Source: a virus. From it: a stretch of DNA of 42,276 bases. Below the pieces are notes generated by a model. That model ran no database searches. It was not told where the DNA came from and saw nothing but the letters and a program-made list of their open reading frames with translations. Shown one piece after another: positions 5,807-34,993 of this stretch (positions are counted from its first letter, which is position 1; the number at the start of each line of letters is the position of its first letter). Position numbers and translations under genes: made by a program. Location: IMG/VR virus record IMGVR_UViG_3300045988_117550, positions 1 through 42,276 of that record. One strand, given 5' to 3'.

Positions 5807-7408
5807 ATGGCAAAAGTTAATCCTTACGTACAAGATAGACTTGCGAGTTCTTTAGGAATTATGCCCGGAATGGATACGTCTGGGGCAGAGCTTGCACAAA
5901 ATTTAGGGAAAAGTGTAGATCAAGTGCAAAATCAAGCACTTAATATCTACGTGGCTAAAAAACAAGAGGCCGCAAAGAATAAAGCGAAATTAGAGGATAT
6001 AAACCATACATTAAGTGCTTATGAAAAGTCAATGGCGGTAGAATCCGACTTATGGGGAATGATTGATAAGACCAAAGAAGAGTATATCAATGATCCTGAA
6101 AGTGGTATGGAAGTTATTAGGTTATCCGGTCAAGCAACGATAAGACAAGCTATCGAGAGCGAAAACAATCCCGCCGTTAAGGAGAAAATGGTTGGCGTTC
6201 TTACTAATAGTTTTCGTGGGAAAATGAACGAAGTTAATTCATGGAAATTAGCACAAGATACCGCCAATGCTTCTAATAAAATTCAAAATACGTTTAATCA
6301 AATGTATACGGTAGCCGCAAGCTCCAGCGATTGGAACCGCGTACAAGAATTAATCAATGCCGTTGATAGCTCTGAAAATAACTGGGACAGAGAGGGTAGC
6401 GAAGATAGTAAAGAAGTCTTTAAAGACTATGTCAATTTTACGTATGGTAAAAAGGGCTTAGAAGAATTAGACAAAGCAAAAAGGGGTATGGCCGCGGCAT
6501 ACATTTTAGGCATGATTGATAGAGGCGAATGCGAACAGGCTAAAGCAGTTCTTGACACTAATAAGCTAGACGCGTACATGGATCCGGAAACAAAGCATAA
6601 ATTTCGTAATATGGCTGACGGGGTTATCAAAGCTAAAGAAAAACAGGAACGTATGGACAATATGTTTCAAATTTTTGATATTAAACAAAACGCCGTAATT
6701 AAAGCCTCAACAGGTGATTACACGATCAAGGACGCGGTGGCTGATAATGAAAAGATTAAAGCACTAGGCGGTACGCCTACAACGTCTATTACTAATGCCG
6801 GTGTTAAGGGCGAAAAAGTCCATACTGTACAGGAGTATAAAGAGAAAAACAGACGGTCTTTAGAAACACTAAATAAAGAGTTTGAGGGGCTTTTGAAAAA
6901 AGGTAAAGTAGATCCCGAGGCAGAATTAAAGGACATACTTGCTTTTCAGAATAAAGTGGAGTCTTGTAAAAGATATTTAACACCTCAACAGTATCAAAGC
7001 TATATGAGCAAATTATCCGAGCCTCGTATCAAAAGATTAAAGAAAATGGGGAAAAATATTTTTGGAATGCCACAGGGTGAAATTGCGGGGAATGATCCTA
7101 CACATAAATCTTACTTAGCAATTTATAATTTTGCTCATAAAGCGTACGCGGGTAAGGATAATCAGCAACACGCTATTACAAACATGTTGCTTGACTTTTC
7201 AAAATATGCGGAACAGTTGGAACACAAACAGGGTAAGCCTATCACACAACAACAGGCTAACAATTTGTGCAATAAAGTTATATCCGACCAAAGGCGAAGA
7301 ACTAACCCGTATCTTAATAATATCCCCAAAGAGGGGCGTGTAATGATGGATAAGTACGGGCATAAGGTAAGAGTTTACGCAGACGGAAGACATGAACCAA
7401 TAAAATAA
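5807..7408 (+). CDS. Internal virion protein (T7 gp15-like), helical.
   Basis: Synteny and composition only. Confidence 0.45.
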   Translation: MAKVNPYVQDRLASSLGIMPGMDTSGAELAQNLGKSVDQVQNQALNIYVAKKQEAAKNKAKLEDINHTLSAYEKSMAVESDLWGMIDKTKEEYINDPESGMEVIRLSGQATIRQAIESENNPAVKEKMVGVLTNSFRGKMNEVNSWKLAQDTANASNKIQNTFNQMYTVAASSSDWNRVQELINAVDSSENNWDREGSEDSKEVFKDYVNFTYGKKGLEELDKAKRGMAAAYILGMIDRGECEQAKAVLDTNKLDAYMDPETKHKFRNMADGVIKAKEKQERMDNMFQIFDIKQNAVIKASTGDYTIKDAVADNEKIKALGGTPTTSITNAGVKGEKVHTVQEYKEKNRRSLETLNKEFEGLLKKGKVDPEAELKDILAFQNKVESCKRYLTPQQYQSYMSKLSEPRIKRLKKMGKNIFGMPQGEIAGNDPTHKSYLAIYNFAHKAYAGKDNQQHAITNMLLDFSKYAEQLEHKQGKPITQQQANNLCNKVISDQRRRTNPYLNNIPKEGRVMMDKYGHKVRVYADGRHEPIK

Positions 7409-7420
7409 GGGGCTTAAAAA

Positions 7421-10400
7421 ATGGGAGAAAACGACATCAATTTAGAGGAAATAGATATTGCGGACTTAACAGAAAACGGGGAGTCTTTACCGCCGTTGCC
7501 AGCAACGGCACCGGAATATAATGAGGATCCTACGTATAACGCGTCCTCTGAAAATAGAATGCAAGAGTATATTGTTGACGATAAGGGGGACGTGCAAAAT
7601 TATGACGACTCTATTGACTGGGGAAGTTTACAACCGGTTGACGAGAGCGGTTTTTCTAATGCACAAGAACCCGATTACGATAGTTTAAAACCTTATGATG
7701 TTGGTGCAAACGCCAATAGTATTTGGGACGAATTAGGCGTAAAAAAAGATATGGGAACGCTTACAGAATATCGCGGACAGTTGGCCCGACAAGTCGCAAG
7801 CGGTAAATTATCTCTTGAAGAGGCACAAGCTATGGTACAAAGAAGACACGGGGATATTCTAAACAAATACGGAATGTCAGAAGTACCCGAGTTCTCTTTT
7901 GCTAAATTTAAGCAAAACCCTATAAGGGCTTGTTTTGGTGAAGTTGCGGAGATGTTACCGTTCTATTGGGGTGGTACTAAAAAAGGGCTTGCGGCGTCCG
8001 TTGCGACTGTACCCGGAACAATAGCAAAAAATGCAGCCGTTGGGGTTATGGCCGGTACTGTTGAACCCGGTTTCGGTAACGCTATCGGTGGTACTGCTGG
8101 ATTAGTAAAGGGTGTAGTAGAGGGTGTATCTTCCGGTATGCTTGTTGGGACATTCTTAGAGTCAATGGAAACAGAGGGCGGAAACCTTTACATGGACTTA
8201 CGCGAAAAAGGAATATCGCATGATACGGCTTATGGAATGAGTCTTGCGGGTGGTATTACTAACGCCCTTTTAGAAACGGCGAGTTTCGGCATTGTTACCG
8301 CACCGATAAAAGGGGCGGCTAAAAAAGCCGCGGCTAAAATGTTGTGGAAACAAATCGAGCATAACCCCGTTGCGAAAAAAGGTGTTGAAAGCGTTATTAA
8401 AAAATGCGTTACAGAGTATTGCAAAAGAGTAGGTGCGGAAGTTACTACGGAAATGTTGCAAGACGTAACAGGCAACGTAATGACGTTATTAGCTGCACAG
8501 GCTGATAGCGTGGAAGAGGCAAAACCTACTATGGAAGACTGGGGGGCAATTCTGAAAGAAACAGGCCCTAAAACCGCTGCGGCCATGTTAGTTATGGGCG
8601 CTATCGGTACTCCGTTTGACGTTATGAACGCTAAAGTAGGTAGCGTTAAAACTAATGGCGGAGAATTTAAACCCGGAACTAAAGAAGAAATTGAAGCACA
8701 TTTAAAAGATCATTACGAGGGTAAGGAAGTTATCACAGGCGAAAGTTTTACCCTCGAGGGGCGTATCCAGTATGATGAAGTAGAAATGTCAGAATTAGAG
8801 GCGGAATATAACGAGAGCCAAAGCAAAATTGATGAGCTTTCAAAAGATGTTACACGTCTTGAAAAAAAGAAAAACAGAACCGCAGAAGAAAGCGAACAAC
8901 TTGCTAATACTAAGGCTGAATTAAAATACGAGCAAGACTATCAGGGCTTAATATCAGAAGAAATGGAGCGTACTGTAAATAAACAAACTCAACAAGAAAC
9001 GGTTAAAACTCGTAAGCAAGAGTTAACAGAAAAAGGGAAAAAAGAAAAATTGACTCCGGAAGAATTGCAGGAGCTTAACGATATTTGGATTGAAGAAGAA
9101 AAAACAAAAGGCGAAAAAGAAATTAACGAGAACACGCAGAAAGCCCGTGAGCGAGAGTTAAATAAAAACATAAGAGATTTAGACACCAAGATAGAAAAAG
9201 TCCAAAAGAAAGAGGATAGCGTACGGGAAAATCGTAACGAGATAGAAACCAAGCAAGACGAAAATAATAAAAAAATTTCAGAGCTGGAAAAAGAAAACGC
9301 AGAAATTCAAAGGGCATTAAAGAAAACGGATATTGAGGAAGATGTTGCAGAAATGAAAACAACACTTTCAAAAAATCGTGAGCTTATCTCTGAACTAAAA
9401 AGAAATAATAAGACTCTTGAAAAACAACGTCTGAAACTCAATGCTGAAATTGAGAACGCTATTGCAGAGGGTGAAAAGCTAGGAAATGAAAGAGCGTCAT
9501 TAAATGAAGAGCGTTCACAACTAAGCGAAGGCATTATAAACGAAAACGGTAAAGTAGATATTACCGCTGGTGGATACAAAAACGCCCAATTAAGTGCATT
9601 AGCAAAAAGGCTTAAAGCTATGCAGCAAGGCATTAAGAGGGGTGTAAGAATGGCACGCCGAGAAATTAGGGACGTGCAAAATTCCGCTATTCAAATGATT
9701 AAAAACTCCGCCATGAGTGATAAAGATAAATCTAGCTTTTTGACTACTATTAGAGATTTGAACAGTAGCGAAAAGTTTGCGAAAGCGTTGCCTAAACTCA
9801 TAAACAAAATTTCGGAACTCGAGGAACGTCATAACAAAAAAGAGCTAATAAACTATATAAACAAAATGCTCAAAAAGGCTAAACCTAAAAAGGGCGGTAA
9901 AACGCCACAGGGCAAGTTTAATGCGGACATACAAAAAATATTAGACGATATTAGTGTAGCCGCAAAATTAAGCGAAACAGAGGCGTATAGTGAAATTGAA
10001 AAAATTTTTGATAGCGCCGGGGATAATCCGCTAACAGACGAACAAACGGCAAAAGTAAGAACTTTGTACGACTTTGGGGGTATGAACGGCAAAAAATCTA
10101 GTGAGCTTTTACGCAACGCTAGGGCTATTCGTATGCTTATTGAAGAGGGTAAAATCGCGGGGCAGTTCAGAGAACAGGCGAAAAAAGAGCATAAAGAAAA
10201 GATTTTGGCGGAGGCTAAAGAGTCAATTATTGGGGACGTTGAACCTACAGGAAATAGAAAGAAAAACCTAGCAAATGAGATTAAGCAAGCATTTAGGCGT
10301 TTCAATGTTATTTCAGAGGGCTGGGACGGTTTAATGCAAATTGCGAGTTTACATGATAAAGATAGAAAACTTACAAAACTTTTAGATGTATTCCCGTCTA

Positions 10401-12384: not shown

Positions 12385-14280
12385 ATGTCAGTTCACAGTA
12401 ACGACAATAGCATTTTAAAAGCGTGCGGGACTCTTACACATTTTGAGTTTGGCTTTAAAGTGTTCAAAGACGAGGACTTAATTGTGTCGCTTATGGATCC
12501 GGGAACACAGGATTTGACACCACTTAAACTAAATGTAGATTATACCGTTAATATCAGTAGAATTGGGGACGGCGGATCTATTGAATTGAATGAAACGCAT
12601 AACGGATATAGTCTTTATGCTTACAGAAAAATCGAAATTATACAACCGCATGAAGTTCCAACAGAGGGGTATTTCCCAGAAAGTACAATCGAAAACGCTC
12701 TTGATAGGGGTATTATGATAGACCAACAGTTACAAGAGCAAATCAACAGATGTATTGCTATTCCGGGGACTTCTGGCTTTTCCGGGGTAAATGTTCAATT
12801 ACCCGTACCTAAAGCGGGTAATACGTTGGCCTGGAGTGAAGACAAAACGCACCTAGAAAATTTTGACGTAAAAGGTGCTAATGATAAGTTTAAAGCAGAT
12901 GTTAATACCTCTTTGGCGAATGCCCGTAGTGAGTTTACTACGCAAATTAGCCAGTTTGAAAGCTCAACCAATACGCAGATTAATAATTTTAAAAATGATG
13001 TAAACACACAAATTACAGAAGTATCAGAGGCCGCGGCTAAAATTAAAGAGTTAGAGGGGGCAGTACAAACGGCAGTAGAAAAGGCGAACGTAGCAACTAC
13101 AAAAGCTGAAACGGCCACAACCGCTGCTACTACCGCAACAGAACAAGCGGACAGAGCGAGTGAGATCGCAAACGAAATGAATAACAAATTTGCTGATATT
13201 GAGAGCTTTAAAAACTCTTTTCCAGCAGCCGTAAACCTTACTACACTCGCGAGATTAAATGACGGAAAGCTATATAATATCCCGTTTGATGATGTTAAAT
13301 CTGACGTTAACCAATTTATTAAATATGAAAGTACAGAAACTAGACGCTCATTGAGATTTAAAGCTAATACCTTTATTAAGTTGATAACAGAAACAGACAC
13401 ACGCCATTTTGTACTATGGAATGATTTAGTTATTAATGTGGAAGATTATTTAGACACAGGCTCCGCACTCATTAACGGTAAGGATTATAGTATTTTCTTA
13501 GTTCCAGACGGAGAGAAGAATGTCGCTATAAAAATCTCATTGAACAAAACCGCGCCTGTTGGATACGATACCGTTAATACCAGACGTATAGGCGGTTTCC
13601 ATACAGAGTGTGCAGACGTTGGAGTAGTACAAGCCGGTAACGAAATGAACAATTGGCTAGCGGGTGATATTATCCCTAATTCGGTTTGGACGTTATGGCA
13701 TAAACCTCTAATTGCTAGTCCGTCTGGTGCAAGATATGTTCCAGAGAGGGACGCATGGAAAACAATATATCACCAGTCGGGAACACTCAAAAATACAGTT
13801 TTTGAGTACGGTGCGACTCTTACACGTTCACGAAGTGCGTGGGATCATGAACTAGACTTAGGCCTAGTAGGTTGGGAGTTCCCAATGTCAATTGACTTTA
13901 CAATATCAGAGTTGGGAATCGTACCTTTAAAAGCCGTTGCGGGTAAAGCTGAATCGTCATGTATAAAAGCTGGTGGCTGGAAGAATGAAAATAATATTAG
14001 ATTAACAACTAGCGGCGGTGATGAAAGTACATGCGGTGGCTTGTGGACGATACTGCAAGAATACGGCCCATGTGGTGAGCAAGGTTGGAATGCGTCAGGT
14101 GTTAATACAATTACATCACCACGACAATACGGCTCAATTCAGCGCTTGTTGGGTGGCGGTGCTTGGGGTCACTCTGGTTACGCTGGTCCGTCTTCTCGTT
14201 GTGGGGCTGACTCGGCTCTGGATACGCGTGCGGATGTCGGTGCGTGCGGTTGGAGCCGTCCTTACCGACCTAGACAATAA
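12385..14280 (+). CDS. Tail fiber: T7 gp17-like N-terminal adaptor, coiled-coil shaft, and a C-terminal domain bearing the DGR variable region.
   Basis: N-terminal FEFGFKVF...L.VDYTV pattern. The C-terminal 113 nt is mutagenised relative to the TR. Confidence 0.8.
   Translation: MSVHSNDNSILKACGTLTHFEFGFKVFKDEDLIVSLMDPGTQDLTPLKLNVDYTVNISRIGDGGSIELNETHNGYSLYAYRKIEIIQPHEVPTEGYFPESTIENALDRGIMIDQQLQEQINRCIAIPGTSGFSGVNVQLPVPKAGNTLAWSEDKTHLENFDVKGANDKFKADVNTSLANARSEFTTQISQFESSTNTQINNFKNDVNTQITEVSEAAAKIKELEGAVQTAVEKANVATTKAETATTAATTATEQADRASEIANEMNNKFADIESFKNSFPAAVNLTTLARLNDGKLYNIPFDDVKSDVNQFIKYESTETRRSLRFKANTFIKLITETDTRHFVLWNDLVINVEDYLDTGSALINGKDYSIFLVPDGEKNVAIKISLNKTAPVGYDTVNTRRIGGFHTECADVGVVQAGNEMNNWLAGDIIPNSVWTLWHKPLIASPSGARYVPERDAWKTIYHQSGTLKNTVFEYGATLTRSRSAWDHELDLGLVGWEFPMSIDFTISELGIVPLKAVAGKAESSCIKAGGWKNENNIRLTTSGGDESTCGGLWTILQEYGPCGEQGWNASGVNTITSPRQYGSIQRLLGGGAWGHSGYAGPSSRCGADSALDTRADVGACGWSRPYRPRQ
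14142..14254 (+). repeat. DGR variable region (VR) at the 3' end of the tail-fiber gene.
   Basis: 113-nt alignment with the TR (offset 199). All 16 mismatches fall at TR adenines. Confidence 0.9.
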
Positions 14281-14290
14281 TAACCAATAT

Positions 14291-14307
14291 ATCCGTAATG
14301 TACGGAT
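14291..14307 (+). promoter_or_regulatory. Hairpin atccgta-atg-tacggat downstream of the VR, a candidate DGR target-recognition element.
   Basis: 7-bp perfect inverted repeat, 37 nt after the VR end. Confidence 0.4.
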
Positions 14308-14340
14308 AAACGAGATTACAAAGGTTATGAGTCTATTAGT

Positions 14341-14453
14341 GCGCTTGATAGGTGGCGGTAATTGGAATAACTCTGGTTACGCTGGTCCGTCTTCTCGTAA
14401 TGGGAATAACTCGGCTCTGAATACGAATGCGAATGTCGGTGCGTGCGGTTGGA
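14341..14453 (+). repeat. DGR template repeat (TR). AAY (Asn) codons lie at the variable positions.
   Basis: See the VR entry. The GC-rich 3' block ggtgcgtgcggttgga is identical in VR and TR. Confidence 0.9.
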
Positions 14454-14587
14454 TACGTAATGCAGCAGAAATGCTGCGGACGGCTGGACTCATACCCTTT
14501 CCCACTAGGGGAAAAACACACTACTTAAACGCCCTTTGTTAGTAGGGTACCCGAAAGTAAGGGGCGTTTTATCTAAAAAGGGACAAC
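14454..14587 (+). ncRNA. TR-RT spacer of the DGR RNA. It holds a GNRA-loop hairpin (14462-14477, gcagca-gaaa-tgctgc) and an 11-bp stem-loop (14527-14569) with a U-tail.
   Basis: Inverted repeats read from the sequence. No coding capacity. Confidence 0.45.
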
Positions 14588-16030
14588 ATGGTAGCAAGAC
14601 ACGGGGACGTTTGGGACACCTTTGTAAGTATGGAAAATCTGCGTTTAGGCTTTAACGACGCAATACGCGGAAGACATAGGAATAAGCAAGTACAAAAAAT
14701 ACTAAGTAAGCAAAAATACGACATTATAGGTAAGAAACGCAAAGGGGAAACAAGAGAACAATACTTAATCCGAAAAGAAAAAAGGATTACAAGATTTCTA
14801 AGGCACTTACAATTTATGCTAAATACAGGACAATACAAAACAAGTAAATACGAAACGAGAGATATAAGAGATCCAAAACCTAGGACACTTTATATCTTAC
14901 CTTTGTATCCTGATAGAATTGTGCAACAAGCCCTAGTAAGACGACTTAAACCTATTTGGGATAAGCAATTTATATATCAAAGTTACGCGTGCCGCAAAGG
15001 AAAAGGGCAACACAAATGCTCATTAAAAATATCGGAATGCGTTGCTAAATACAAGTATTGTGGGCTTACAGACATTTCAAAATTCTATCCAAGTATCCCG
15101 CATGATGAATTGTTTTCAATAGTTCAAAGAAAAATTAAAGATAAAAAAATACTGGCTTTATTAAAAGATATTATATATTCGATAGGCGGTGAAAGAAATG
15201 TGCCTATTGGCAACCTTACAAGCCAATGGCTAGGTAATCTTTATTTGAATGAATTAGATCAATATGTCGCACATGTATTAAAAATTTCGGACGCACCGAG
15301 ATATATGGACGATAAGGCGTATTTTAGTAATGACAAAAAAGAATTACGAAAAAGTTTAGAACTTATTGAAACTTTTATTTCGGAAAAATTAAAACTCAAA
15401 CTTAGTAGAAAAACTGTTTTAAGATGTGATAAAGGCGTTCCGTTTATAGGTTATCGACATTTTCCGGGCTACGTCTTGCTACGTAAAAGAACAACAAAAC
15501 GAATTAAACGTAGAATACCAACTACACAAAAAAGGTATAAGAAAAAGCAAATAACATTAGTACAGTACACTTCAACGCTTGCGTCCTATTATGGCTGGGC
15601 CAGTTTTGGTAATACATATAACTTTCGTAAAAGTACCCGCCTAGACGTTTTGCTTGAAAGCGCAAGAAATAAAATAAAGGAGGTAAAAATGCGCGGTTTT
15701 CCAAAATACACAGATATTGCAACAAAGTATGACGTGAACAATCTTAGGGCCATTTTCCCAAAAGAAACAAAACAATTCCTAGAATGTTTAAAGGGTGATA
15801 GGTTTATTTGGGAAGACAAAGGGGACATTCCGTCAATAGAAGACGGTATTGTTGACGATACTCATAAAGTTGTTGAAGTCTTAATTCAACCTACATGCGA
15901 GGGAGAAAAACCTACAAAAGAGTTACACCAATTAGAACTTATTGAAGATAAAAACGCAAGAGTATTCCGCATGGGCTATACCTTAAACGAAATAGACTCA
16001 ATTATAGAAGAATTGTCTTCGTTGTCGTAA
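14588..16030 (+). CDS. DGR reverse transcriptase with a C-terminal extension.
   Basis: RT motifs PDRIVQQAL, IGNLTSQ (the DGR-type SQ motif), YMDD and FIGYRHF. Adjacent to the TR. Confidence 0.9.
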   Translation: MVARHGDVWDTFVSMENLRLGFNDAIRGRHRNKQVQKILSKQKYDIIGKKRKGETREQYLIRKEKRITRFLRHLQFMLNTGQYKTSKYETRDIRDPKPRTLYILPLYPDRIVQQALVRRLKPIWDKQFIYQSYACRKGKGQHKCSLKISECVAKYKYCGLTDISKFYPSIPHDELFSIVQRKIKDKKILALLKDIIYSIGGERNVPIGNLTSQWLGNLYLNELDQYVAHVLKISDAPRYMDDKAYFSNDKKELRKSLELIETFISEKLKLKLSRKTVLRCDKGVPFIGYRHFPGYVLLRKRTTKRIKRRIPTTQKRYKKKQITLVQYTSTLASYYGWASFGNTYNFRKSTRLDVLLESARNKIKEVKMRGFPKYTDIATKYDVNNLRAIFPKETKQFLECLKGDRFIWEDKGDIPSIEDGIVDDTHKVVEVLIQPTCEGEKPTKELHQLELIEDKNARVFRMGYTLNEIDSIIEELSSLS

Positions 16031-16041
16031 TCCCTTTATAT

Positions 16042-16061
16042 GTGGAGGGCATGCCCTCCAC
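16042..16061. terminator. Bidirectional terminator, perfect 20-bp palindrome gtggagggcatgccctccac, between the RT and the convergent HTH gene.
   Basis: Perfect palindrome followed by T-runs. Confidence 0.6.
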
Positions 16062-16066
16062 TTTCT

Positions 16067-16627
16067 TTAATGGAATAACTTATAACTCCATGAGTTCTTT
16101 ATGTCTTCAATTTTCTTCTTTAGTTCTAAATTTTCCGCCTTTAAAGTTTCAAACTTTTTCAATAAGTCTTCATGCTTAATAGATAAAGTTTGATAATTCG
16201 CGTTAAGCTCAAAATATTTCTCTTCCGTAATTCTAGCACTATCAGTAAGTAGTTTGGTTTGTTGTCCAGAATTTTCTAAAGCAAAACGTAGGGCGTTTAT
16301 TGCTTCGCCTAAAATCCTAACTTCGGAATTTTTTGAACTTTGTAAATTTTTTGAAACATTTTCAAACTCAACATCTTGTATTATTTCGGAATTTGTCGGA
16401 CTTATTTGGGCTGTTTCAAACTCGTTTGAATCATTTTCAAACTGTTCGGAATTTTCCAAAGTTTTATAGCGTTCTATGTCTTCACGTGTCAATAGTGCTT
16501 TTATGCCGTCCGCACGTTCCACAGTTTCAAACTTTCCTGAATTAATCCAGTAATACGCTTTTGATTTCTTCCAATTTAAGACTTTCATTAGCTCTTGAGC
16601 TGATAGTTCTAATTTTTCCATTTTCAA
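16067..16627 (-). CDS. DNA-binding protein: Xis/AlpA/MerR-like HTH at the N-terminus plus a coiled-coil C-terminus.
   Basis: ELMKVLNWKKSKAYYWINSGKFETVERADGIKALLTREDIERY fits the HTH_17 pattern. Confidence 0.5.
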   Translation of the reverse strand: MKMEKLELSAQELMKVLNWKKSKAYYWINSGKFETVERADGIKALLTREDIERYKTLENSEQFENDSNEFETAQISPTNSEIIQDVEFENVSKNLQSSKNSEVRILGEAINALRFALENSGQQTKLLTDSARITEEKYFELNANYQTLSIKHEDLLKKFETLKAENLELKKKIEDIKNSWSYKLFH

Positions 16628-19575: not shown

Positions 19576-19756
19576 ACCCTCTACCTCTTTCTTTTTTAGT
19601 TAGGTGGTACCTATTACATAAAGGGCATTTGTAAACAAACAATTTCAGCCCTTTTTCTTCTTCAATTTTCTTTGCTATTCCAAGCGCGTAGTCTTTCGTT
19701 CGGTATGCCTTTTTGTGCAAGCAAGTCCTCCACATTGTTTGTGCCGTCCATGTCAT
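19553..19756 (-). CDS. Small Cys-containing protein, possibly a zinc ribbon.
   Basis: CPLCNRYH motif. Confidence 0.3.
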   Translation of the reverse strand: MTWTAQTMWRTCLHKKAYRTKDYALGIAKKIEEEKGLKLFVYKCPLCNRYHLTKKERGRGYDNKKNI

Positions 19757-20124
19757 ACTAACCTCGCTTTCAGTTGCGCTCTGCGTGTATTTTCTGCTCT
19801 TGATACTATTTCTAGGTTTTCAAATCTATTATCAAAAGTATTACCATTTACATGATCCACGACGTACCCTTTAGGAACAGACGGTATAAGCACTCTATGA
19901 ACTTGTTTGACATAAGGCACCATTGTTACGGGGTGTTTACCGTACACACACGGGTATAGCGTTGGGTTTCTTCCCTCGCGTTTAGTGTTTGTGCTTTGAA
20001 TACAAAGCCCTTTAAAGCCCGGAAAACTAAAAAGAATTTTATACGAGCTTCGATTAAGTTTTAATAAATGCCTACCATTAGTCTTAGAGTCAATGTATAG
20101 GCTAACGCATTCTTGTTGTATCAT
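19753..20124 (-). CDS. HNH endonuclease.
   Basis: VDHVNGNTFDNRFENLEIVSRAEN motif. Confidence 0.65.
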   Translation of the reverse strand: MIQQECVSLYIDSKTNGRHLLKLNRSSYKILFSFPGFKGLCIQSTNTKREGRNPTLYPCVYGKHPVTMVPYVKQVHRVLIPSVPKGYVVDHVNGNTFDNRFENLEIVSRAENTRRAQLKARLV

Positions 20125-22157
20125 TTCCTATACCTCTCACCTATCCAGCCCTCTGCAACGATAGGACACGTAGTCGCCCATTCTGGAGTCGTACATAAAA
20201 GTTTTTCAAACTCTTTAACGTCCCCCGTCCCTTTTTTACAAGAGGCCACAACCTCATCATGCACAGTCATTCTGATTTTATAACCGTGTTTTTCAAGATT
20301 AAGCATGCCCCAGGCCATTAAGTCCCTAGCGGTTGCTTGTACTATGTTTTCCACGATAGCCCCGCCGTAAGTATGCTGACGTTCCAATTTACGCGTAACA
20401 GGGTTTTCAGCCATAAAGGTAAGTTGTTCTTTGATTTCGCCCCATTTCGTTTCAATAGGTTTGATAACAGGCTCACAATAAGCAATACATCTGCCAGAAA
20501 GTAATCGGCAATATAGAAATTTGCCCTGTACTTTCCACATAACGGGCCCCTCTTTAATAATTCGCCCTGCCTCTCTTACGGCTCTTATAGCTGCTCTTTC
20601 TTGGGCGTACCAAAATGCTACTACTTCTGGGTATGTTGCACGATATGTTTTTACAACCAGATCCGCCGTTTCTCTTGAAATATCTAAGCCCGTTTGTGTT
20701 TTTACTTGTGCCTTAAATCTATCCGGCCCCATTTGATAACCGCAACCCAAAACACCCGTCTTACCTAGTTGTCGTTCGTCTTTATCTTTTTTAGTAATCT
20801 TGCGTTTGTATATTTCAGAGGCAAGTTCACAATAAATGTCCGCCCCCTCTCTAAAAGCCTTTAGTCCTTTTTCTGCCCCAGCAAGCCATAAAACCACACG
20901 GGCCTCAATTGCAGAAAAGTCCGCGGCGATTAAGTCTTCCCCGTCCTCTGCTTTGATAAAGCCTCTAAGTGCCGTACTTATCGCGTCCACGACATTAGGA
21001 TATATAAACTCAAACGTATCGTAATCAAGAGTTTTTAAGTCCTCGATAACTTTGTCGCTATCATAAGACTTATCGCCTCGGGGAAAGTTCTGTACTTGTA
21101 TCCCCTTACCGCTCCAACGTCCGGTAGAGGCCCCGTGGTACATGAGAATATCGCGTATATTTCCGTCGGGGCATATACACAATTTCATTGTTTCCAGTTT
21201 AGATGTTGACGATTTACCCGCTTGTTGACGAATTTCTAATATTCTACGTATTTTAGAATCTGTACAGACTTTTAAATATTCCGTAATGTTCGTAGCGTTT
21301 AAGTTTGGTAGTTCCGTTTCGTCCACAAAGTCCCTGATGTATCGGGTGAGTTTTGCTACTTCCGTTGCTTTAGAAACGGCACCGCTAGTTAAATCAAGCA
21401 ACTCGTTATTGAGTTTATCCTTAAATATCGTTACGAATTTTATCGCTTTGTCTAACGCCGCTCTATCAATATTTACGCCCCTAGCGTTAATAATCTGGTC
21501 TAGTTTCCAAACTTCACGCTCTAGTGGGATAAGAGGCGGTAATGCGTTATCAATAGCTGACTCAACTACTACGTCTTGTTCGCAATAGTCATATAAAACC
21601 TTATAATCCTCCTCTTTATCGTTCCATATAGTCTTATCTTTCGCACTAATTTTTTTAGGCTTAGACATTTTCATCATTATTCTTTTACCGGTTTCATCTT
21701 TTTTTTGTGTAAGATGTAAAGCAATAGCACATTTCCCCAACGCTCTTGGTAAAGCGTGAGCAGCTGCCTTACTTGCCGTACATTCCCAACGGTTGAAGTC
21801 TTTTAGTTCCGGAAAACCGTAAGCCTTTGCCAGTATGTTATTCCACATGCAATACTCAAACATTGAGTTATGAGCAAAAAATCGTACGTCTTTGTTTTTT
21901 GCAAGATCAATAATTTTTTCTACTGCGATAATATCAGCTCGATCATCAGGATACACACAACTCATAATATGGTTATCGAACCAACTATTAAAAAGTTCTT
22001 TTGTTATAGTTGCGTGGAAAGTTTGCCCGTTAGGGTATTCAACTCGATAGCATAAGCAAAGTACGGTAGTTGAGGGGTCGAGGCTATAACGCCACGGCCC
22101 AACATCTACAACACTTAATACACTTCGAGTTTCAAAATCTAAGTGTACTTTTATCAT
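20121..22157 (-). CDS. Family A DNA polymerase with a 3'-5' exonuclease domain.
   Basis: DFET and YCEQD exonuclease motifs. Polymerase motifs DFSAIEARV, RQLGKTGVLGCGYQMG and VHDEVV. Confidence 0.85.
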   Translation of the reverse strand: MIKVHLDFETRSVLSVVDVGPWRYSLDPSTTVLCLCYRVEYPNGQTFHATITKELFNSWFDNHIMSCVYPDDRADIIAVEKIIDLAKNKDVRFFAHNSMFEYCMWNNILAKAYGFPELKDFNRWECTASKAAAHALPRALGKCAIALHLTQKKDETGKRIMMKMSKPKKISAKDKTIWNDKEEDYKVLYDYCEQDVVVESAIDNALPPLIPLEREVWKLDQIINARGVNIDRAALDKAIKFVTIFKDKLNNELLDLTSGAVSKATEVAKLTRYIRDFVDETELPNLNATNITEYLKVCTDSKIRRILEIRQQAGKSSTSKLETMKLCICPDGNIRDILMYHGASTGRWSGKGIQVQNFPRGDKSYDSDKVIEDLKTLDYDTFEFIYPNVVDAISTALRGFIKAEDGEDLIAADFSAIEARVVLWLAGAEKGLKAFREGADIYCELASEIYKRKITKKDKDERQLGKTGVLGCGYQMGPDRFKAQVKTQTGLDISRETADLVVKTYRATYPEVVAFWYAQERAAIRAVREAGRIIKEGPVMWKVQGKFLYCRLLSGRCIAYCEPVIKPIETKWGEIKEQLTFMAENPVTRKLERQHTYGGAIVENIVQATARDLMAWGMLNLEKHGYKIRMTVHDEVVASCKKGTGDVKEFEKLLCTTPEWATTCPIVAEGWIGERYRK

Positions 22158-29180: not shown

Positions 29181-30209
29181 CTATTTTATATAAACCAGTC
29201 TTAGCCCCTTGCCCCCCCCGTTCGCACTAAGGGATACGCTTTTGCCACGAACAGAATAAACACGATTAGCCTGTGATTTACTATTGCCGACATTCCCTAT
29301 ACGCTCGGGGGTATCAAATAGCAAATTGTTATATTCCCACGAGTTAGCCGTCATTGTTGGGGCTTTGTCTGTGTGGATTCCGCCCTTATTTTTGCCTCTT
29401 GGTAATTGAAACATTACCATAGCGTCTTTATCTACTGATGTAAGGCTATGAGCTTTACCGTCGTGTTTGATTTCTGGGCGTGATACTCGAGGAATGCCCT
29501 CCGTTTTCTTACGTGGCCACGTTCTAATAGCACGCGGTATTGGCTCTAAGACTCCCGTTTGTCTTTGGTTTCCAAAACCTTTATAATCTCGGGCCATTAA
29601 ACTAGAGCTTTTTTGCAAAACCGCACATAGCCTTTTGCCATATTTCTCTGTACTAATACCTGTTCCACTTTCTATTACATCTCGTAGAAAAATTTTCTTG
29701 TCGTTCGGTTGTGTTACCCAAATATTAGTCCAATAATACCTTTTACGTTGTTGGGCTGACATTAGTGCGGAATTTATCATAATAGGCTCAACGCCTAATA
29801 TTTCGCTTATCTTATCCCTGTCGCAATCTCTCATACTTGCTACATTTTCAAGTAAAAAGTATTTTGGTTTAGCCTTTTCAAGAATTTTTACATAAGTCCA
29901 AAACAGTCCGCTACGTTCGCCCTCTAGCCCTTTTCTATCCTGTTTTGCTATACTCAAATCTTGGCATGGACTTCCGCCGATAAGTAGATCTATTGAATCC
30001 CATGAAAAACCGTCTATAAACTCCCACATGTCGTAGTTGTTTACGTCCCCTAGCTCAATAGCATTGGGGTAATTCTTGTTTCCAATTTTTCTAGCGTATT
30101 TGTCAATTTCGCTACAAAAATACTTATCGTAAGTTATCCCCGCTCTTTCAAGAGCAATAGCACCGCAACGCATACCGTCAAAGAGGCTCAACACATTTCT
30201 TATTTGCAT
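29181..30209 (-). CDS. DNA cytosine-5 methyltransferase.
   Basis: LFDGMRCG (motif I), GGSPCQDLS (motif IV), LLENV (motif VI). Confidence 0.85.
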   Translation of the reverse strand: MQIRNVLSLFDGMRCGAIALERAGITYDKYFCSEIDKYARKIGNKNYPNAIELGDVNNYDMWEFIDGFSWDSIDLLIGGSPCQDLSIAKQDRKGLEGERSGLFWTYVKILEKAKPKYFLLENVASMRDCDRDKISEILGVEPIMINSALMSAQQRKRYYWTNIWVTQPNDKKIFLRDVIESGTGISTEKYGKRLCAVLQKSSSLMARDYKGFGNQRQTGVLEPIPRAIRTWPRKKTEGIPRVSRPEIKHDGKAHSLTSVDKDAMVMFQLPRGKNKGGIHTDKAPTMTANSWEYNNLLFDTPERIGNVGNSKSQANRVYSVRGKSVSLSANGGGKGLRLVYIK

Positions 30210-30427
30210 TTTTCAGCCTCCTTAGTTTTGCTAATAACATCTAAAATCATTGTGTATCCTATGTTACCCGATTCAATTATAACTTTAGCATTTGTTAATA
30301 GTGAATATTCCGGGAATACCATAATCGGTCGTTTCACCATAGCGCCAACTATCATTTCAATTTCGTCAAGAGCTTTTTGTAACTTAAAACAATTCTTACA
30401 ATACTGTGTGCAATCCTCTTTAATCAT
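30200..30427 (-). CDS. Hypothetical small protein.
   Basis: ORF overlapping its neighbours. Confidence 0.3.
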   Translation of the reverse strand: MIKEDCTQYCKNCFKLQKALDEIEMIVGAMVKRPIMVFPEYSLLTNAKVIIESGNIGYTMILDVISKTKEAEKCK

Positions 30428-30905
30428 TGTTTACCTCCTGTGCTTGTAGTAAAAAATGTAGTCTTGCTAGTGCATTCCACGCAACATGACCCGCGTGTAA
30501 TAATTCACTCTCACTATCGACTCCGGGGCCGTCGCTTTCTGCCATTAAATGCCTTACCATAGCGTTACTGTACCTGTTAAAACCGTTCTCTACGCATTTC
30601 CAGTTGCCTTTTGAATATTTATCAGCCCCAAAAGCCCATATTTTTGCTACATATTCCAACGGTATTGAAAAGTCTTGTATCATTTCCGCAACTCTCGGCT
30701 TACCCTCGTCTAGCTTAGTGCCGATATGAGCGCCGAAGTCCGCAAGGCTACAGGTTTCCCCTGCTATATCGTCTGTTAATTTTTTTGAAAGTTCTGCGTA
30801 ATCTTCACCTATTGTCATTGTTTTTTGCTCCTTATCCATATTACTAACGAAATCAAGTACACTATCAATGAGATCGTATAAACTCGGTTCTCCCGGCCAC
30901 GGCAT
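30420..30905 (-). CDS. Hypothetical protein, possibly a nucleotide pyrophosphohydrolase-like fold.
   Basis: ORF. The function is not supported from the sequence. Confidence 0.4.
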   Translation of the reverse strand: MPWPGEPSLYDLIDSVLDFVSNMDKEQKTMTIGEDYAELSKKLTDDIAGETCSLADFGAHIGTKLDEGKPRVAEMIQDFSIPLEYVAKIWAFGADKYSKGNWKCVENGFNRYSNAMVRHLMAESDGPGVDSESELLHAGHVAWNALARLHFLLQAQEVNND

Positions 30906-30906
30906 T

Positions 30907-31434
30907 TTATACCCTCCCTTTAAATGCTACCGTACCAAATGGGCGTGTCATATCCCAAAGCACCTTAGTCCCTTGTATATATGTTCCGTTCCCAAATATT
31001 GCTATCATAATTTTTTGACTCGGTTTAATCTCTTCTAGCTCTTGACCTGGTACAATAAAACCGACTTTGCCCGGCAAGAACGCAAACAGACAATTTTTAT
31101 TCTTCAAAATGTATTCTTGGTAATACTTAGTTTCTAATCTATCCGCCGGTAGAACAGAATATACCACCGCCCCCTTATTAGCCTCCTCAACGGCTTTTTG
31201 CACCCAAAATTTTGTAAACTTAAATGGCGGGTTCATAAAGCAATAACCGTGCCAGTTTTCTATTAAGCCATTATGCTTACCGTCTATGTAATGCCATAAC
31301 GCCGGTATATTCTTTTCGCTACAACAAACGTCTAAATGAAATTGCTTTATCCCCGCTAATTGTAATAACGGTTTATATAAGTCAGCTGGAGTCTTATAGT
31401 CCTGTCGCTCCGCTCTGTAATCCTTTTGTGCCAT
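30907..31434 (-). CDS. DNA N6-adenine methyltransferase (phage Dam_N6 type).
   Basis: YKTP...LD..C....W...MNPPF pattern. Confidence 0.8.
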   Translation of the reverse strand: MAQKDYRAERQDYKTPADLYKPLLQLAGIKQFHLDVCCSEKNIPALWHYIDGKHNGLIENWHGYCFMNPPFKFTKFWVQKAVEEANKGAVVYSVLPADRLETKYYQEYILKNKNCLFAFLPGKVGFIVPGQELEEIKPSQKIMIAIFGNGTYIQGTKVLWDMTRPFGTVAFKGRV

Positions 31435-33323: not shown

Positions 33324-34040
33324 TTATGCTATTGTTTGATATTTTTCTTGCCATAGATTCAATGTTTTTTGTTGATAATCTTTTGAAGTTTTTTTCATTG
33401 AAATTTGTTTAACTTCTGGAATTGCTGCGGGTTCGTCGCTTTCGCTTGCTCTAGTTTGTTCAGAATTAAAAACGCTATAACCCTTATAATAAACTTTTGT
33501 TTTTTGTGGTTCGTCGCTTTCGTCGTCTTCTTTTTGCTTACTGAAAATAGCTAAAGTTAAATAAGTTGATTTTTCGCCCTTTTTAACTGAATTTTTAGCG
33601 GTTTTGTATTGAGCAAAAGTTGACCATAAGCAAGAAGTATAATCGTTTTCAAGTCTTTTTATTTCAAGTGTCCAGATATTCCAGCCGCTAAAATTATGTT
33701 TTGTTAGTGGGTTGCGGTGATTAGCCGGTTTTAAACCATTTTCCCAATATAAAGCAAATAGGGCGCCCTCTTGGAATACGTATTTTTTAGCCTCTTTTAA
33801 TAATTCTTTTTTGCGTGCTAACTCTTCCGGGCTTTCGTTCAAATCAACATTAACGTAATTAGAAAATGCTTTATAATTTACATCAATATTTTTTATAGCT
33901 TTTTCTAGTTGGTTGTGTATTTCCTTTAAAATTTCGTTACCCTTTTCGCCGTAAATGTCCGGGTGATACTTCTTTACAAGTTGCTTGTAAGTTGCTTTTA
34001 AATCTTCTGAAGATTTACAATTTTGAAAATAGTTTGTCAT
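33324..34040 (-). CDS. J-domain (DnaJ-like) protein with an unknown C-terminal domain.
   Basis: LKATYKQLVKKYHPD, containing the HPD motif. Confidence 0.75.
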   Translation of the reverse strand: MTNYFQNCKSSEDLKATYKQLVKKYHPDIYGEKGNEILKEIHNQLEKAIKNIDVNYKAFSNYVNVDLNESPEELARKKELLKEAKKYVFQEGALFALYWENGLKPANHRNPLTKHNFSGWNIWTLEIKRLENDYTSCLWSTFAQYKTAKNSVKKGEKSTYLTLAIFSKQKEDDESDEPQKTKVYYKGYSVFNSEQTRASESDEPAAIPEVKQISMKKTSKDYQQKTLNLWQEKYQTIA

Positions 34041-34232: not shown

Positions 34233-34240
34233 TCGACAAT
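34229..34240 (-). promoter_or_regulatory. Degenerate motif copy 8 (TTGTCGAATGC on the minus strand).
   Basis: Partial match. Confidence 0.3.
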
Positions 34241-34244
34241 TATT

Positions 34245-34269
34245 CCTTATGTTTACATTCTAAACGATA
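34245..34269. promoter_or_regulatory. Operator repeat 1 (acattctaaacgataccgtttaaaa; palindrome TAAACG-atac-CGTTTA). It sits in the spacer of a leftward sigma70-like promoter: TTGACT (34275-34270), 17 nt, TAGAAT (34252-34247).
   Basis: 25-bp exact direct repeat. Hexamers and spacing read from the sequence. Confidence 0.55.
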
Positions 34270-34316
34270 CCGTTTAAAAAGTCAAGTATATAGTTAAGAA
34301 TATCGTTACAAATCTT

Positions 34317-34345
34317 AATAATAATATTGACATTCTAAACGATAC
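34317..34345 (+). promoter_or_regulatory. Rightward sigma70-like promoter: TTGACA, 17 nt, TAAAAT. Operator repeat 2 (34320-34344) lies in its spacer. It drives the HTH regulator gene.
   Basis: Consensus hexamers with a 17-nt spacer. The repeat is exact. Confidence 0.55.
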
Positions 34346-34398
34346 CGTTTAAAATAAGTATTGTAAATGGGTATTTTTGCCCGGAAAGTGAGGACAAC

Positions 34399-34638
34399 AT
34401 GAAATCTATTACAAGCCCCGACAGAGCAAAGGAAATCGAAAACCAGCTACGCGGTGTTATTGCTGCTAGTGGGCTGAATGCTACACAATTAGCGGACTTA
34501 ATAACGCAAAAATGCGGGCGTCCGGAAAGTGTTCAAAGTTTTTCACAAAAACTTAAACGCGGTTCTATTAAATACGCGGAAGTTTTAGAAATCGCGGAAT
34601 TATTAAATTTTGAATTAGTATGGCACAAATTAAAATAA
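34399..34638 (+). CDS. XRE/Cro-CI-like HTH transcriptional regulator (79 aa).
   Basis: GLNATQLADLITQKCGRPESVQSFSQ HTH pattern. SD gtgaggacaacATG. Confidence 0.7.
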   Translation: MKSITSPDRAKEIENQLRGVIAASGLNATQLADLITQKCGRPESVQSFSQKLKRGSIKYAEVLEIAELLNFELVWHKLK

Positions 34639-34648
34639 TTATAAAACA

Positions 34649-34668
34649 CGCGGGGAATTGTCCCCGCG
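34649..34668. terminator. Bidirectional terminator cgcgggga-attg-tccccgcg.
   Basis: 8-bp perfect stem, T-rich on both sides. Confidence 0.7.
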
Positions 34669-34888
34669 GTTTGTTTAATGAGTCCGACAGTATATAAAAG
34701 TTAATATATTAAGTTTTCAATGTTCGGGCGGGAATTAGCTCGCCGTGTGCTTTTCTGCTACTTTGTGCATATTGTCCGCCCGATTAGTTATCGTTTATTA
34801 TCGTTTATTATCGTTGAATTTTAAAATATATTGCGTTAATATGTAAGTAACCACGAAAAGCGTATAAGGCGCATGCCTTTTCTCGTTT

Positions 34889-34902
34889 TTTGTGTTCGAC
34901 AA
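34889..34902 (-). promoter_or_regulatory. Conserved motif copy 9 (AAATTGTCGAACACAAAAAA on the minus strand), pointing into a 220-nt noncoding stretch.
   Basis: Motif match. Confidence 0.45.
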
Positions 34903-34993
34903 TTTTATTGTACGTCTGGCCCGCTGGGGCTTGGCGTACTTTTCTTTTTTGTTATGAATCTAAATAATAAAATAGCGCAAAGTCATATACAAA

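Follow-up and report, generated by a model that had tools for sequence, protein, structure and literature searches.

Does a tail-fibre gene, a repeat pair and a reverse transcriptase (RT) gene, lying together on one strand of a gut phage genome, form a functional DGR, and how could such an element work when no Avd can be detected beside it? BPP-1, the founding DGR phage, remains the prototype against which any such locus is measured. The window analysed here, 42,276 nucleotides in full, is a complete podovirus genome (42.3 kb) from the human gut, and an earlier note had read the locus as a tropism switch acting on the C-terminus of a tail fibre. We consider it very likely that the element is a functional BPP-1-type DGR that diversifies the receptor-binding tip of the fibre. 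The tropism-switch reading is supported by adenine-specific mismatches, the class of the RT, the Mtd fold of the target, hypervariation of the VR in the population and copying from TR to VR, and by analogy it would extend to host range.

The repeat pair and its natural variation

The VR (14142–14254, plus strand), which encodes fibre residues 586–624 of 631, and the TR (14341–14453, plus strand) were realigned over 113 nt without gaps at a constant offset of 199, in exact agreement with the coordinates, length and offset given in the earlier note. Its count of differences was likewise reproduced, as all mismatches (16/16) lie at TR adenines and all non-A positions (90/90) are the same. The TR contains 23 adenines, 16 altered in the VR and 7 retained, and the hypergeometric probability that 16 of 16 mismatches land on them is P = 2.2e-14. 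The mismatch spectrum comprises ten A>G, four A>C and two A>T changes. It had been claimed that the TR encodes Asn at every varying site; this holds for the 14 of 16 changes that fall in the nine AAY (Asn) codons, but not for the other two, by which an ATA (Ile) codon of the TR becomes TTG (Leu) in the VR. The TAC and ACG codons of the TR also contain adenines and are variable in relatives. Because adenines occupy positions 1 and 2 of the nine AAY codons, in addition to those in ATA, TAC and ACG, 12 residues of the lectin tip would be randomised without stop codons; adenine mutagenesis of this TR cannot reach a stop, and allows about 7e13 DNA and 3e12 protein variants. A further VR or third repeat copy was not found on either strand of the entire window.

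At its 3' boundary (14236–14261, plus strand) the VR carries an A-free, GC-rich 18-mer, GTCGGTGCGTGCGGTTGG, common to the TR, downstream of which follow the VR-specific AGCCGTCC and the TR-specific ATACGTAAT, both constant across six lineages. The flanks GGAGCCGTCC of the VR and GGATACGTAAT of the TR are equally unchanged in the six lineages, with fibres 57–97% identical. Judged by sequence, this combination of a shared GC-rich 18-mer and a VR/TR flank difference appears IMH-like. About 30 nt 3' of the VR, at 14290–14308 (no strand assigned), a perfect 8-bp hairpin, TATCCGTA-ATG-TACGGATA, forms a candidate target-site cruciform. BPP-1 requires a hairpin downstream of its VR, whereas the one seen here is kept in close relatives (L006) and not conserved in the more distant L091, L093, L095 and L096, and was therefore dropped as a general conserved cruciform. 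Farther downstream, a terminator-like hairpin (16042–16061, plus strand; GTGGAGGGCATGCCCTCCAC followed by a T-run) ends the target-TR-RT transcription unit.

Relatives, gathered by exact-protein look-ups, provide a natural record of this pair; an exact-pattern scan of IMG/VR with the A-free VR/TR 18-mer returned five unrelated single matches only. The fibre's 90% cluster holds 97 distinct members. In 14 aligned members, 93–98% identical to the window fibre, differences fall mainly at TR-adenine codons, and the columns exceeding 1 bit of entropy (residues 589, 593, 595, 596, 599, 606, 608, 609, 613, 615 and 617) all correspond to such codons. Five relatives (L006–L010) show 11–13 differences between the VR and their own TR, all except one at adenines, and the TR is constant; the window, L009 and L010 have the same TR and differing VRs. 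Unrelated VRs on fibres that are 97–98% identical imply very recent VR turnover. Over six lineages, adenines hold 11–16 of the 12–16 VR/TR mismatches, and lineage-specific non-A substitutions of the TR are mirrored in the cognate VR in 71 of 71 cases. An invariant TR beside a variable VR thus points to a one-way flow of information from TR to VR.

The fibre, the reverse transcriptase and the activity of the element

The target is a tail fibre of 631 aa (12385–14280, plus strand), composed of a Bbp9/gp17-type adaptor (residues 1 to about 135), an Ala-rich coiled coil (about 160–285) and an Mtd-like receptor-binding region (about 300–631). Pfam places PF21916, 'Mtd second domain', at residues 317–435 (E 1.3e-18, exceeding the curated cut-off), and a phmmer search of the PDB matched the N-terminus of the Dpo31 tailspike and BPP-1 Mtd. 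The AF2 model of residues 301–631 (pLDDT 90) found BPP-1 Mtd (1yu2/1yu4/1yu0) as its best Foldseek match, with E values of about 1e-17 to 1e-18 and a TM score of 0.76 over about 350 columns; FGE-type C-type-lectin folds and TaqVP ranked next. It is strongly supported by this model that the C-terminal 330 aa are an Mtd-type C-type-lectin protein with the VR inside the lectin fold. The description of the N-terminus in the earlier note as a T7 gp17-type adaptor needs qualification. By hhalign, the N-terminal family is much closer to BPP-1 Bbp9 (98.6%) than to T7 gp17 (75%, E 2.5e-5), and PF03906 (Phage_T7_tail), present in some more distant homologues, has no match in the fibre even at E <= 5. 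Membership of the T7 gp17 family at the Pfam level was therefore rejected, and the relationship to gp17 appears to be one of distant homology.

The adjacent RT gene (14588–16030, plus strand) encodes 480 aa, with core and thumb in residues 1 to about 366 (14588–15688, plus strand) and a fused C-terminal domain. A basic insertion of about 25–33 aa is located at residues 35–70 or so. The DGR motif and catalytic motif reported earlier were located, IGNLTSQ at residues 207–213, fitting [I/V/L]GxxxSQ, and YMDD at 239–242, and R99 and I207 are the counterparts of bRT R74 and I181. The RT matches phrog_1423 (E 4e-88), and its nearest solved relative is 8ub7 (E 2.5e-39), confirmed by sequence to be BPP-1 Brt.

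Two readings would deny the element its present activity. According to one, an ordinary duplication or gene-conversion tract happens to lie beside an unrelated group II intron or retron RT. The best NCBIfam model for the RT is indeed a group II RT/maturase, which is sub-threshold (111 bits, where the cut-off is 300), and a match to a DGR-specific model is not listed there. However, the RT is far nearer to Brt than to group II (1e-19) or retron-type (8e-16) enzymes, it carries the signature [I/V/L]GxxxSQ and not QGxxxSP (PMC7826257), and an Rfam search was negative for group II intron and retron RNAs. The adenine restriction, moreover, recurs independently in six lineages. On the RT scores and the negative RNA search, the group II intron and retron assignments were rejected, and we regard this reading as having practically no chance of being right. 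According to the other, the cassette in this genome is an inactive relic, whose repeats record past activity of the lineage and whose Avd-less RT no longer drives retrohoming. Apart from the missing avd, it can draw on one VR being common to L006, L007 and L008, and on RT genes that are split in L007 (237+241 aa) and L093 (263+188 aa), from which it follows that individual copies can be dead. But the window's own RT is an intact ORF of 480 aa retaining all catalytic and signature motifs, and it shares 99% identity with its 90% cluster, which has 86 members. Purifying selection clearly acts on the TR, the spacer RNA and the IMH-like flanks, and the recent VR turnover described above also counts against a dead element. 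We hold a relic to be improbable.

For a functional DGR, the following sequence of events can be proposed. The fibre gene, TR, spacer RNA and RT, which share one strand and one terminator, would probably be co-transcribed with late genes; RNA carrying the TR and the structured spacer would be copied by the RT, which would misincorporate opposite template adenines. The cDNA would then replace the VR at the 3' end of the fibre gene, with the 3' limit of replacement set by the shared GC-rich 18-mer and the differing VR/TR flanks, and receptor specificity could be altered among up to about 3e12 fibre variants. Priming of the RNA within the spacer, the mechanism of cDNA integration and the effect on host range are what we infer by analogy with BPP-1.

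Spacer RNA and acidic domain of an Avd-less cassette

Avd is present in about 74% of DGRs and essential in BPP-1, and is not universal (PMC5758913), so its absence does not bar an element from DGR membership. Among the 26 unassigned ORFs of the window, neither PF22296 nor PF05635 had a match; a local HMM that recognises BPP-1 Avd likewise gave none, and Pfam was negative for Avd in 129 neighbouring ORFs of 50 related loci. Since Avd is missing here and essential in BPP-1, some substitute must be assumed. Two features of the cassette come into consideration besides the basic N-terminal insertion of the RT.

One is the TR-RT spacer RNA (14451–14575, plus strand), which includes the TR-specific flank and three hairpins. 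Its fold has a z-score of -2.5, and RNAalifold detected compensatory changes. A covariance model, R1, matches 75 loci, each just upstream of an RT; over 65 distinct sequences, 90.9% of cells pair, double changes occur in 27 of 28 pairs, and the covariation score is 0.744, against 0.10–0.13 in slid controls. The Rfam family RF02921 (RT-14) matches at 14474–14569 with 36.6 bits (E about 0.001–0.002), below its gathering score of 48.1, which was reached by none of 15 related loci. The RT-14 RNA and the spacer have in common their place directly upstream of an RT gene, a short hairpin, a long terminal hairpin with UAGUAG...CGAA internal loops, and GGA...UCCUU; unlike the RF02921 model, the spacer has 10 nt replacing the 53-nt 5' segment. 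From these likenesses the spacer RNA appears to be a relative or variant of RT-14 and not a curated member. RT-10 lies in the TR-RT spacer of BPP-1, and other RT motifs have been speculated to serve DGRs (Weinberg et al., 2017, PMC5737381); R1 had no match in the BPP-1 locus.

The other is the domain fused to the RT, which we call MRGFPKY (residues 368–480, about 115 aa; 15689–16030, plus strand), acidic with a pI of 4.85 (about 4.9). No recognisable nucleic-acid-binding fold, known fold or Pfam family was found for it, and the MutS_I-like/MSL identity proposed for RT extensions by Wu et al. is unsupported by Pfam and fold searches. Elsewhere the family usually occurs as a separate gene of about 100 aa (free-standing form about 83–135 aa) beside DGR RTs, almost always immediately 3' on the same strand, in phages and MAGs of Negativicutes, Alphaproteobacteria, Elusimicrobia, Melainabacteria and Nitrospirae. 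Fusions to the RT occur in several divergent RT groups, 38–83% identical to the window RT. The family and Avd were found together in 0 of 169 loci, and the spacer RNA is present in 59 of 69 family loci versus 1 of 14 Avd loci.

It may be inferred that the role of Avd is taken by the acidic C-terminal domain and/or the basic N-terminal insertion, with the spacer RNA. A bolder proposal, which we put forward tentatively and with more doubt than belief, is an Avd-independent DGR subtype, in which an RT clade goes together with a spacer RNA of the RT-14-like type and with a small acidic protein (about 100 aa) as obligatory RT partner, acting in template recognition or priming instead of Avd, with bbp4 of BPP-1 perhaps a remote homologue. 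The domain might also be no DGR component but a mere adjacent gene of the phage, possibly corresponding to bbp4, that was fused in frame, with Avd-independence achieved by RT and RNA alone or by a host factor; this is a serious possibility, somewhat short of an even chance. It would accord with an acidic domain that has no recognisable nucleic-acid-binding fold, with the sufficiency of bRT, Avd and RNA for cDNA synthesis in vitro (PMC6182149), and with bbp4 itself, an acidic 82-aa ORF that occupies the equivalent position in the Avd-bearing BPP-1. The similarity of bbp4 to MRGFPKY is weak and collinear, with INTREDLD and ERFGFT motifs (hmmsearch 6 bits; hhalign E 0.0024, probability 12%), and a bbp4 HMM found nothing in the related loci; remote homology is thus suggestive only. 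Against this reading count the position of the family directly 3' of DGR RTs in very different contexts, its repeated fusion to them, and its co-occurrence with the spacer RNA, which is much more frequent than that of Avd.

Host phage and relation to known DGRs

The window revealed no RNA polymerase gene. Of its nine ORFs with at least 500 aa, eight were assigned other functions; the ninth (533 aa, 5807–7408) has no match, and its length falls short of that of a T7-type RNA polymerase. The phage has a T7-like structural module, yet is not a member of Autographiviridae. Calling it an RNAP-less T7-like podovirus, as the earlier note does, agrees with its gene content, but BPP-1 answers to the same description, so that the setting is the canonical one for a DGR. 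The features that are unusual, the lack of avd and the extra C-terminal domain fused to the RT, are not mentioned in that note. A megablast query of 10 kb found no counterpart among deposited phages, and an RT covering at least 80% of the window RT was found in 0 of 50,697 deposited phage genomes. The host is probably a gut Melainabacterium, a group whose viruses are poorly known.

As a concept, the tail-fibre DGR offers little beyond the founding BPP-1 case. What makes it valuable is, first, that DGR activity is recorded here with unusual clarity in nature, by 97 variants of the fibre within a single 90% cluster and by the copying of every lineage-specific non-A change, and second, a compact, complete Avd-less cassette of about 3.7 kb, consisting of target, TR, spacer and a single RT gene. 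Current mechanistic and engineering work all depends on bRT-Avd, and a one-protein system would be useful if it works. The cassette also connects DGRs with an Rfam motif class that had no assigned function (RT-14-like) and with a family of small proteins that lacks annotation, and through this link the mode of action of Avd-less DGRs becomes directly testable.

BPP-1, at about 42 kb, is likewise a podovirus that has a T7-like structural gene order and lacks an RNA polymerase. In both phages the locus runs from a giant internal protein through fibre, Mtd with 3' VR, TR, RT and small ORFs to an endolysin (bbp10-bbp9-mtd-(avd)-TR-brt-...-endolysin in BPP-1), and the two elements share 23 TR adenines mostly in AAY codons, an Mtd/C-type-lectin target, an IMH-like VR/TR flank difference and a structured TR-RT spacer. 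Protein identity, however, is only 22–32%, and the present element departs from the BPP-1 design in its fused Bbp9-Mtd-like fibre, in the lack of a detectable Avd and in the acidic C-terminal domain of its RT. Here a single polypeptide of 631 aa combines a Bbp9-type N-terminus with the Mtd-like domain, where BPP-1 has two proteins. In the RT, the basic N-terminal insertion and the fused acidic domain (about 115 aa) are additional, and avd is missing. The spacer is RT-14-like instead of RT-10 type, the likely host is Melainabacteria and not Bordetella, and no integrase was found in the window.

C-terminal extensions occur in about 20% of DGR RTs (Wu et al., 2018, PMC5758913), and the present element resembles the avd-less DGRs of that study (Architecture A, 'Lineage 3') in its target-TR-RT order and in an RT extension of about 115–130 aa without known motif. 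The CH1 accessory, found only in avd-less DGRs and reported from a Bacteroides lineage (160–169 aa, pI 4.7; PMC5758913), is acidic like the RT extension (pI 4.85), whose free-standing form is shorter and taxonomically widespread; the two were compared by description only. In the DGR literature examined, we found no link of such an extension to a fused free-standing gene, to Avd exclusion or to co-occurrence with a specific spacer RNA. Among phages of the human gut, tail-fibre DGRs have been described in Hankyphage, Quimbyvirus, crAss-like and Bacuni phages and in the viral clades of Roux et al. 2021 (PMC8008677, PMC8144416, PMC8143477). Like the element described here, they target a C-type-lectin tail protein, and their VR varies among near-identical genomes, but their phages are larger, of sipho-, myo- or crAss-type, with Bacteroidota or Firmicutes hosts and with Avd where reported (Bacuni, PMC8143477).

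Adenine-restricted rewriting of the fibre tip

Twelve codons at the C-type-lectin tip of the fibre are rewritten in one direction, from template to target, and the rewriting is restricted to template adenines. The variable repeat (VR, 14142-14254) and the template repeat (TR, 14341-14453) lie exactly where an earlier note on this DNA had placed them, align without gaps at an offset of 199, and have no third copy in the window. Sixteen of 113 positions differ, all 16 of them at TR adenines, and the non-adenine positions are identical throughout (90 of 90). The TR holds 23 adenines, seven of which are unaltered in the window VR, and the probability that 16 random mismatches would all land on these 23 is 2.2e-14. 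The mismatch spectrum is A>G 10, A>C 4 and A>T 2. In the fibre frame, the TR adenines fall at the first and second positions of nine AAY codons, together with one ATA, one TAC and one ACG; the suggestion that the TR encodes Asn at every varying site is thus correct for 14 of the 16 changes, the other two lying in the ATA codon. No substitution at TR adenines can reach a stop codon, and the coding capacity of the TR amounts to ~7e13 DNA sequences or ~3e12 peptides.

Natural variation follows the same pattern. The 90%-identity cluster of the fibre comprises 97 distinct members, on contigs of ~42 kb from many human-gut metagenomes; samples containing the window contig or close relatives include ERZ28613922, ERZ4559840 (Hadza), ERR7366477 and SRR13348819. 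Among 14 aligned members, 93-98% identical to the window fibre, the columns with more than 1 bit of entropy are aa 589, 593, 595, 596, 599, 606, 608, 609, 613, 615 and 617, each encoded by a codon that holds a TR adenine, and no column outside the TR-adenine codons exceeds 1 bit. Two related loci, L009 and L010, carry the same TR as the window and different VRs, which depart from their own TR at 11-13 sites each, with one non-adenine exception in all. Across six lineages with fibres 57-97% identical, adenines account for 11-16 of the 12-16 VR/TR mismatches, and lineage-specific non-adenine substitutions in the TR are mirrored in the VR of the same genome in 71 of 71 cases. Such mirroring is to be expected if the TR is copied into the VR repeatedly and in one direction only, but not from selection acting on the fibre by itself.

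The fibre ORF (12385-14280, 631 aa) matches the Pfam 'Mtd second domain' (PF21916, E 1.3e-18) and has an alanine-zipper-like coiled coil. The C-type lectin fold expected at its C-terminus was borne out by structure prediction: the AlphaFold2 model of aa 301-631 (pLDDT 90) is of the Mtd type and superposes on all five crystal structures of Mtd, the target protein of Bordetella phage BPP-1, the DGR prototype (E ~1e-17 to 1e-18, TM 0.76, ~350 columns), followed by formylglycine-generating-enzyme-type C-type-lectin folds and a Thermus DGR variable protein. The N-terminal 135 aa resemble the adaptors of Dpo31 (Cobetia phage Carin1), Pelagibacter podophage fibres and BPP-1 Bbp9. With a profile of this N-terminal family, Bbp9 is found at 98.6% probability and T7 gp17 at 75% (E 2.5e-5), and the fibre has no match to Pfam PF03906. 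The proposed gp17-type adaptor therefore survives as a distant kinship but not as membership of PF03906, and the fibre is best described as a Bbp9-type adaptor fused to an Mtd-type tip.

A DGR-class reverse transcriptase with conserved RNA and boundary elements

The reverse transcriptase (RT) ORF (14588-16030, 480 aa) matches RVT_1 and phrog_1423 (E 4e-88). Its assignment to the DGR class was upheld, since it carries IGNLTSQ (aa 207-213) and YMDD (aa 239-242) and is closer to Brt, the RT of BPP-1, than to group II intron RTs (1e-19) or retron-type RTs (~1e-15); the closest solved relative is PDB 8ub7 (E 2.5e-39), whose matched segments occur verbatim in Brt, both being 328 aa long. R99 and I207 of the window RT align with R74 and I181 of bRT, for both of which a role in promoting adenine mutagenesis has been shown (PMC7826257). 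A search of NCBIfam returned no DGR-specific match and an uninformative, sub-threshold group II match. The window RT is ~150 aa longer than Brt. Near its N-terminus lies a basic insertion (aa ~35-70, window 14690-14800, pI 11.1, KILSKQKYDIIGKKRKGETREQYLIRKEKRITRF), which is limited to the clade of the window RT and relatives down to ~46% identity and is absent from ordinary DGR RTs (~335 aa). In two related loci the RT is split into two ORFs (L007 5204-6614, 237+241 aa; L093 6268-7684, 263+188 aa), representing either decaying copies or assembly errors; the VR of L007 is the same as that of its intact-RT siblings L006 and L008.

Both repeats terminate in an A-free, GC-rich 18-mer (VR 14236-14253, TR 14435-14452), followed by AGCCGTCC in the VR and by ATACGTAAT in the TR, and both flanks are invariant across six lineages. 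This arrangement recalls the IMH/IMH* asymmetry of BPP-1. About 30 nt downstream of the VR lies a perfect 8-bp hairpin (14290-14308), which more distant relatives do not keep, and a terminator-like hairpin (16042-16061) lies past the RT stop codon.

The 134-nt spacer between TR and RT folds more stably than shuffled controls (z = -2.5) and contains compensatory changes. A covariance model built on seven sequences matches 75 of the RT loci collected, in every case on the same strand as the RT and with its end at the RT start. In an alignment of 65 distinct sequences, pairing holds in 90.9% of cells, double substitutions occur in 27 of 28 pairs, and the covariation score is 0.744 versus 0.10-0.13 with the partners slid, figures that are somewhat inflated because the alignment was fitted to the covariance model. 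The lone Rfam match of the spacer, RT-14 (RF02921), is sub-threshold (36.6 bits against a gathering score of 48.1), and the two have hairpins and loop motifs in common. The TR-RT spacer of BPP-1 holds the RT-10 motif according to Weinberg et al., who guessed that other RT motifs serve DGRs too (PMC5737381), a guess that the window spacer RNA fits. In L093, a related prophage, the Rfam abiF RNA motif (RF03085, 46.8 bits, above the gathering score) was seen at 8458-8494, just 3' of the lysis genes.

If the biochemistry of BPP-1 applies (PMC6182149, PMC7826257, PMC3240598), the TR-spacer RNA would be template and primer scaffold in one, the RT would misincorporate opposite adenine, the cDNA would home to the VR with the GC-rich element setting its 3' end, and the resulting fibre variants would change receptor use.

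The MRGFPKY domain and the accessory protein Avd

Avd, the accessory protein of BPP-1, has no recognisable counterpart in the window: the interval from the fibre stop (14280) to the TR start (14341) is too short for a gene, and no ORF of the genome matches bAvd PF22296, PF05635 or a local Avd HMM that recovers BPP-1 Avd. The RT ends in a domain of ~115 aa (aa 368-480, pI 4.85), which begins MRGFPKY and is confidently modelled as a small alpha/beta unit (pLDDT 86.7). A phmmer search of 1.84 billion representatives yielded 167 relatives, nearly all free-standing (83-135 aa) and aligning from the first residue, with few RT fusions; judged by these sequence relatives, the domain is a gene in its own right.

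Among 169 RT-centred loci from IMG/VR and GTDB genomes, the module occurs in 75 (14 fused, 61 separate and usually directly 3' of the RT), bAvd in 14 and the two together in none. The spacer RNA is present in 59 of 69 module-bearing loci and in one of 14 with Avd; of 75 loci that have neither protein, 14 carry it. All these figures lack phylogenetic independence and describe clades. Avd Pfam models matched none of 129 same-strand neighbour ORFs in 50 module-bearing loci. By the models used, both proteins are missing from about half of all loci, which may mean that the Avd HMM is too restrictive. Wu et al. (2018) reported avd to be absent from 26% of DGRs and from one lineage altogether, described unexplained C-terminal extensions on ~20% of RTs, and found the acidic accessory gene CH1 to be restricted to avd-less DGRs (PMC5758913).

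That the fused acidic domain, the basic insertion and the RT-14-like RNA stand in for Avd is a speculative reading, and BPP-1 itself bears on it. Its bbp4 (L175 9351-9599), an unannotated acidic ORF of 82 aa, overlaps the end of brt at a position equivalent to that of the module and has 492 small homologues in metagenomes. It has in common with the MRGFPKY family an N-terminal (I/L)NT(K/R)xD(L/Y) and a C-terminal R(F/L)GFT, a weak, collinear similarity (hhalign probability 12%). If this similarity is homology, the module is able to coexist with Avd and is perhaps not its replacement.

One subgroup of the related DGR loci has an additional ORF of ~97-130 aa, without a Pfam match, directly 3' of the RT (L028/L125 6989-7279, L037 6875-7270, L024 7016-7312, L043 7019-7327, L101 6992-7291, L161 7013-7333), in L028, L037 and L125 between the RT and an MRGYPK-type small gene; it may be another accessory component.

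Genome, host and relation to BPP-1

Positions 1-119 recur identically at 42158-42276, so the genome is complete, whether through circular permutation, terminal redundancy or closure by an assembly overlap. PHROG matches cover terminase, T7-type portal, major head protein, both tail tubular proteins (A and B) and internal virion proteins, one of them a 1650-aa giant; fibre, TR, RT and then endolysin follow. The opposite strand encodes a Holliday-junction resolvase, HNH endonuclease, family-A DNA polymerase, gp2.5-like SSB, exonuclease, helicases, primase-helicase and methyltransferases. Eight of the nine ORFs of at least 500 aa have known phage functions, none an RNA polymerase; the ninth (5807-7408, 533 aa) is matchless and too short for a T7-type RNA polymerase. 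The phage is thus fairly described as an RNAP-less T7-like podovirus.

Several stretches drew attention on their own account. An HNH endonuclease ORF (19753-20124, -) directly follows the DNA polymerase gene (20121-22157, -) and overlaps it by 4 nt. At 30420-30905 (-), 30907-31434 (-) and 29181-30209 (-), a PF18909 ORF (dATP/dGTP diphosphohydrolase N-terminal domain, E 1.4e-21) adjoins a Dam-like N6-adenine methyltransferase and a second methyltransferase, a cluster that could act on the nucleotide pool or in DNA modification; a PurZ-like gene was not seen. The ORF at 33324-34040 (-), with an ArdC N-terminal (anti-restriction) domain and a weak DnaJ match, probably encodes an anti-defence function expressed early. 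The ~2 kb (~34240-36280) separating the divergent early and late blocks are almost ORF-free and very AT-rich (27% GC at 35-36 kb), with several direct repeats (including a 40-nt pair, 34240-34279 / 34315-34354) and palindromes, and may house the origin and regulatory sites.

No close deposited phage was found (best portal match 36.7%, no megablast matches). The nearest genomic relatives come from MAGs that bear the labels Vampirovibrio, Gastranaerophilales or Melainabacteria, which makes gut Melainabacteria the probable host; one Bacteroidales-labelled bin is among the top matches, and we regard the assignment as a lead, not a result. The relatives in the Vampirovibrio, Gastranaerophilales and Melainabacteria MAGs have RTs 42-68% identical to the window RT (L094, CAJTLG010000002.1, 219 kb; L091, 207 kb; L093, 714 kb; L095; L106/L107/L117/L142), and some are embedded in contigs of 207-714 kb, pointing to prophages. 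In the window no integrase is recognisable, and the one ORF of related kind is HTH_17/excisionase-like (16067-16627, -).

The element is real and its interpretation as a DGR is right. The part worth follow-up is the Avd-less configuration with an RT-fused accessory domain and an RT-14-like RNA. Nine window proteins match BPP-1 at 22-32% identity, and the annotated BPP-1 genome shares both the overall architecture and the local gene order of the window, which in BPP-1 runs from the giant protein bbp10 through the fibre bbp9, mtd with the VR, avd, TR, brt, bbp4 and bbp3 to the endolysin; BPP-1 likewise fits the description of an RNAP-less T7-like podovirus. The element belongs to the best-known kind of DGR, and the phage is a distant architectural relative of the prototype.
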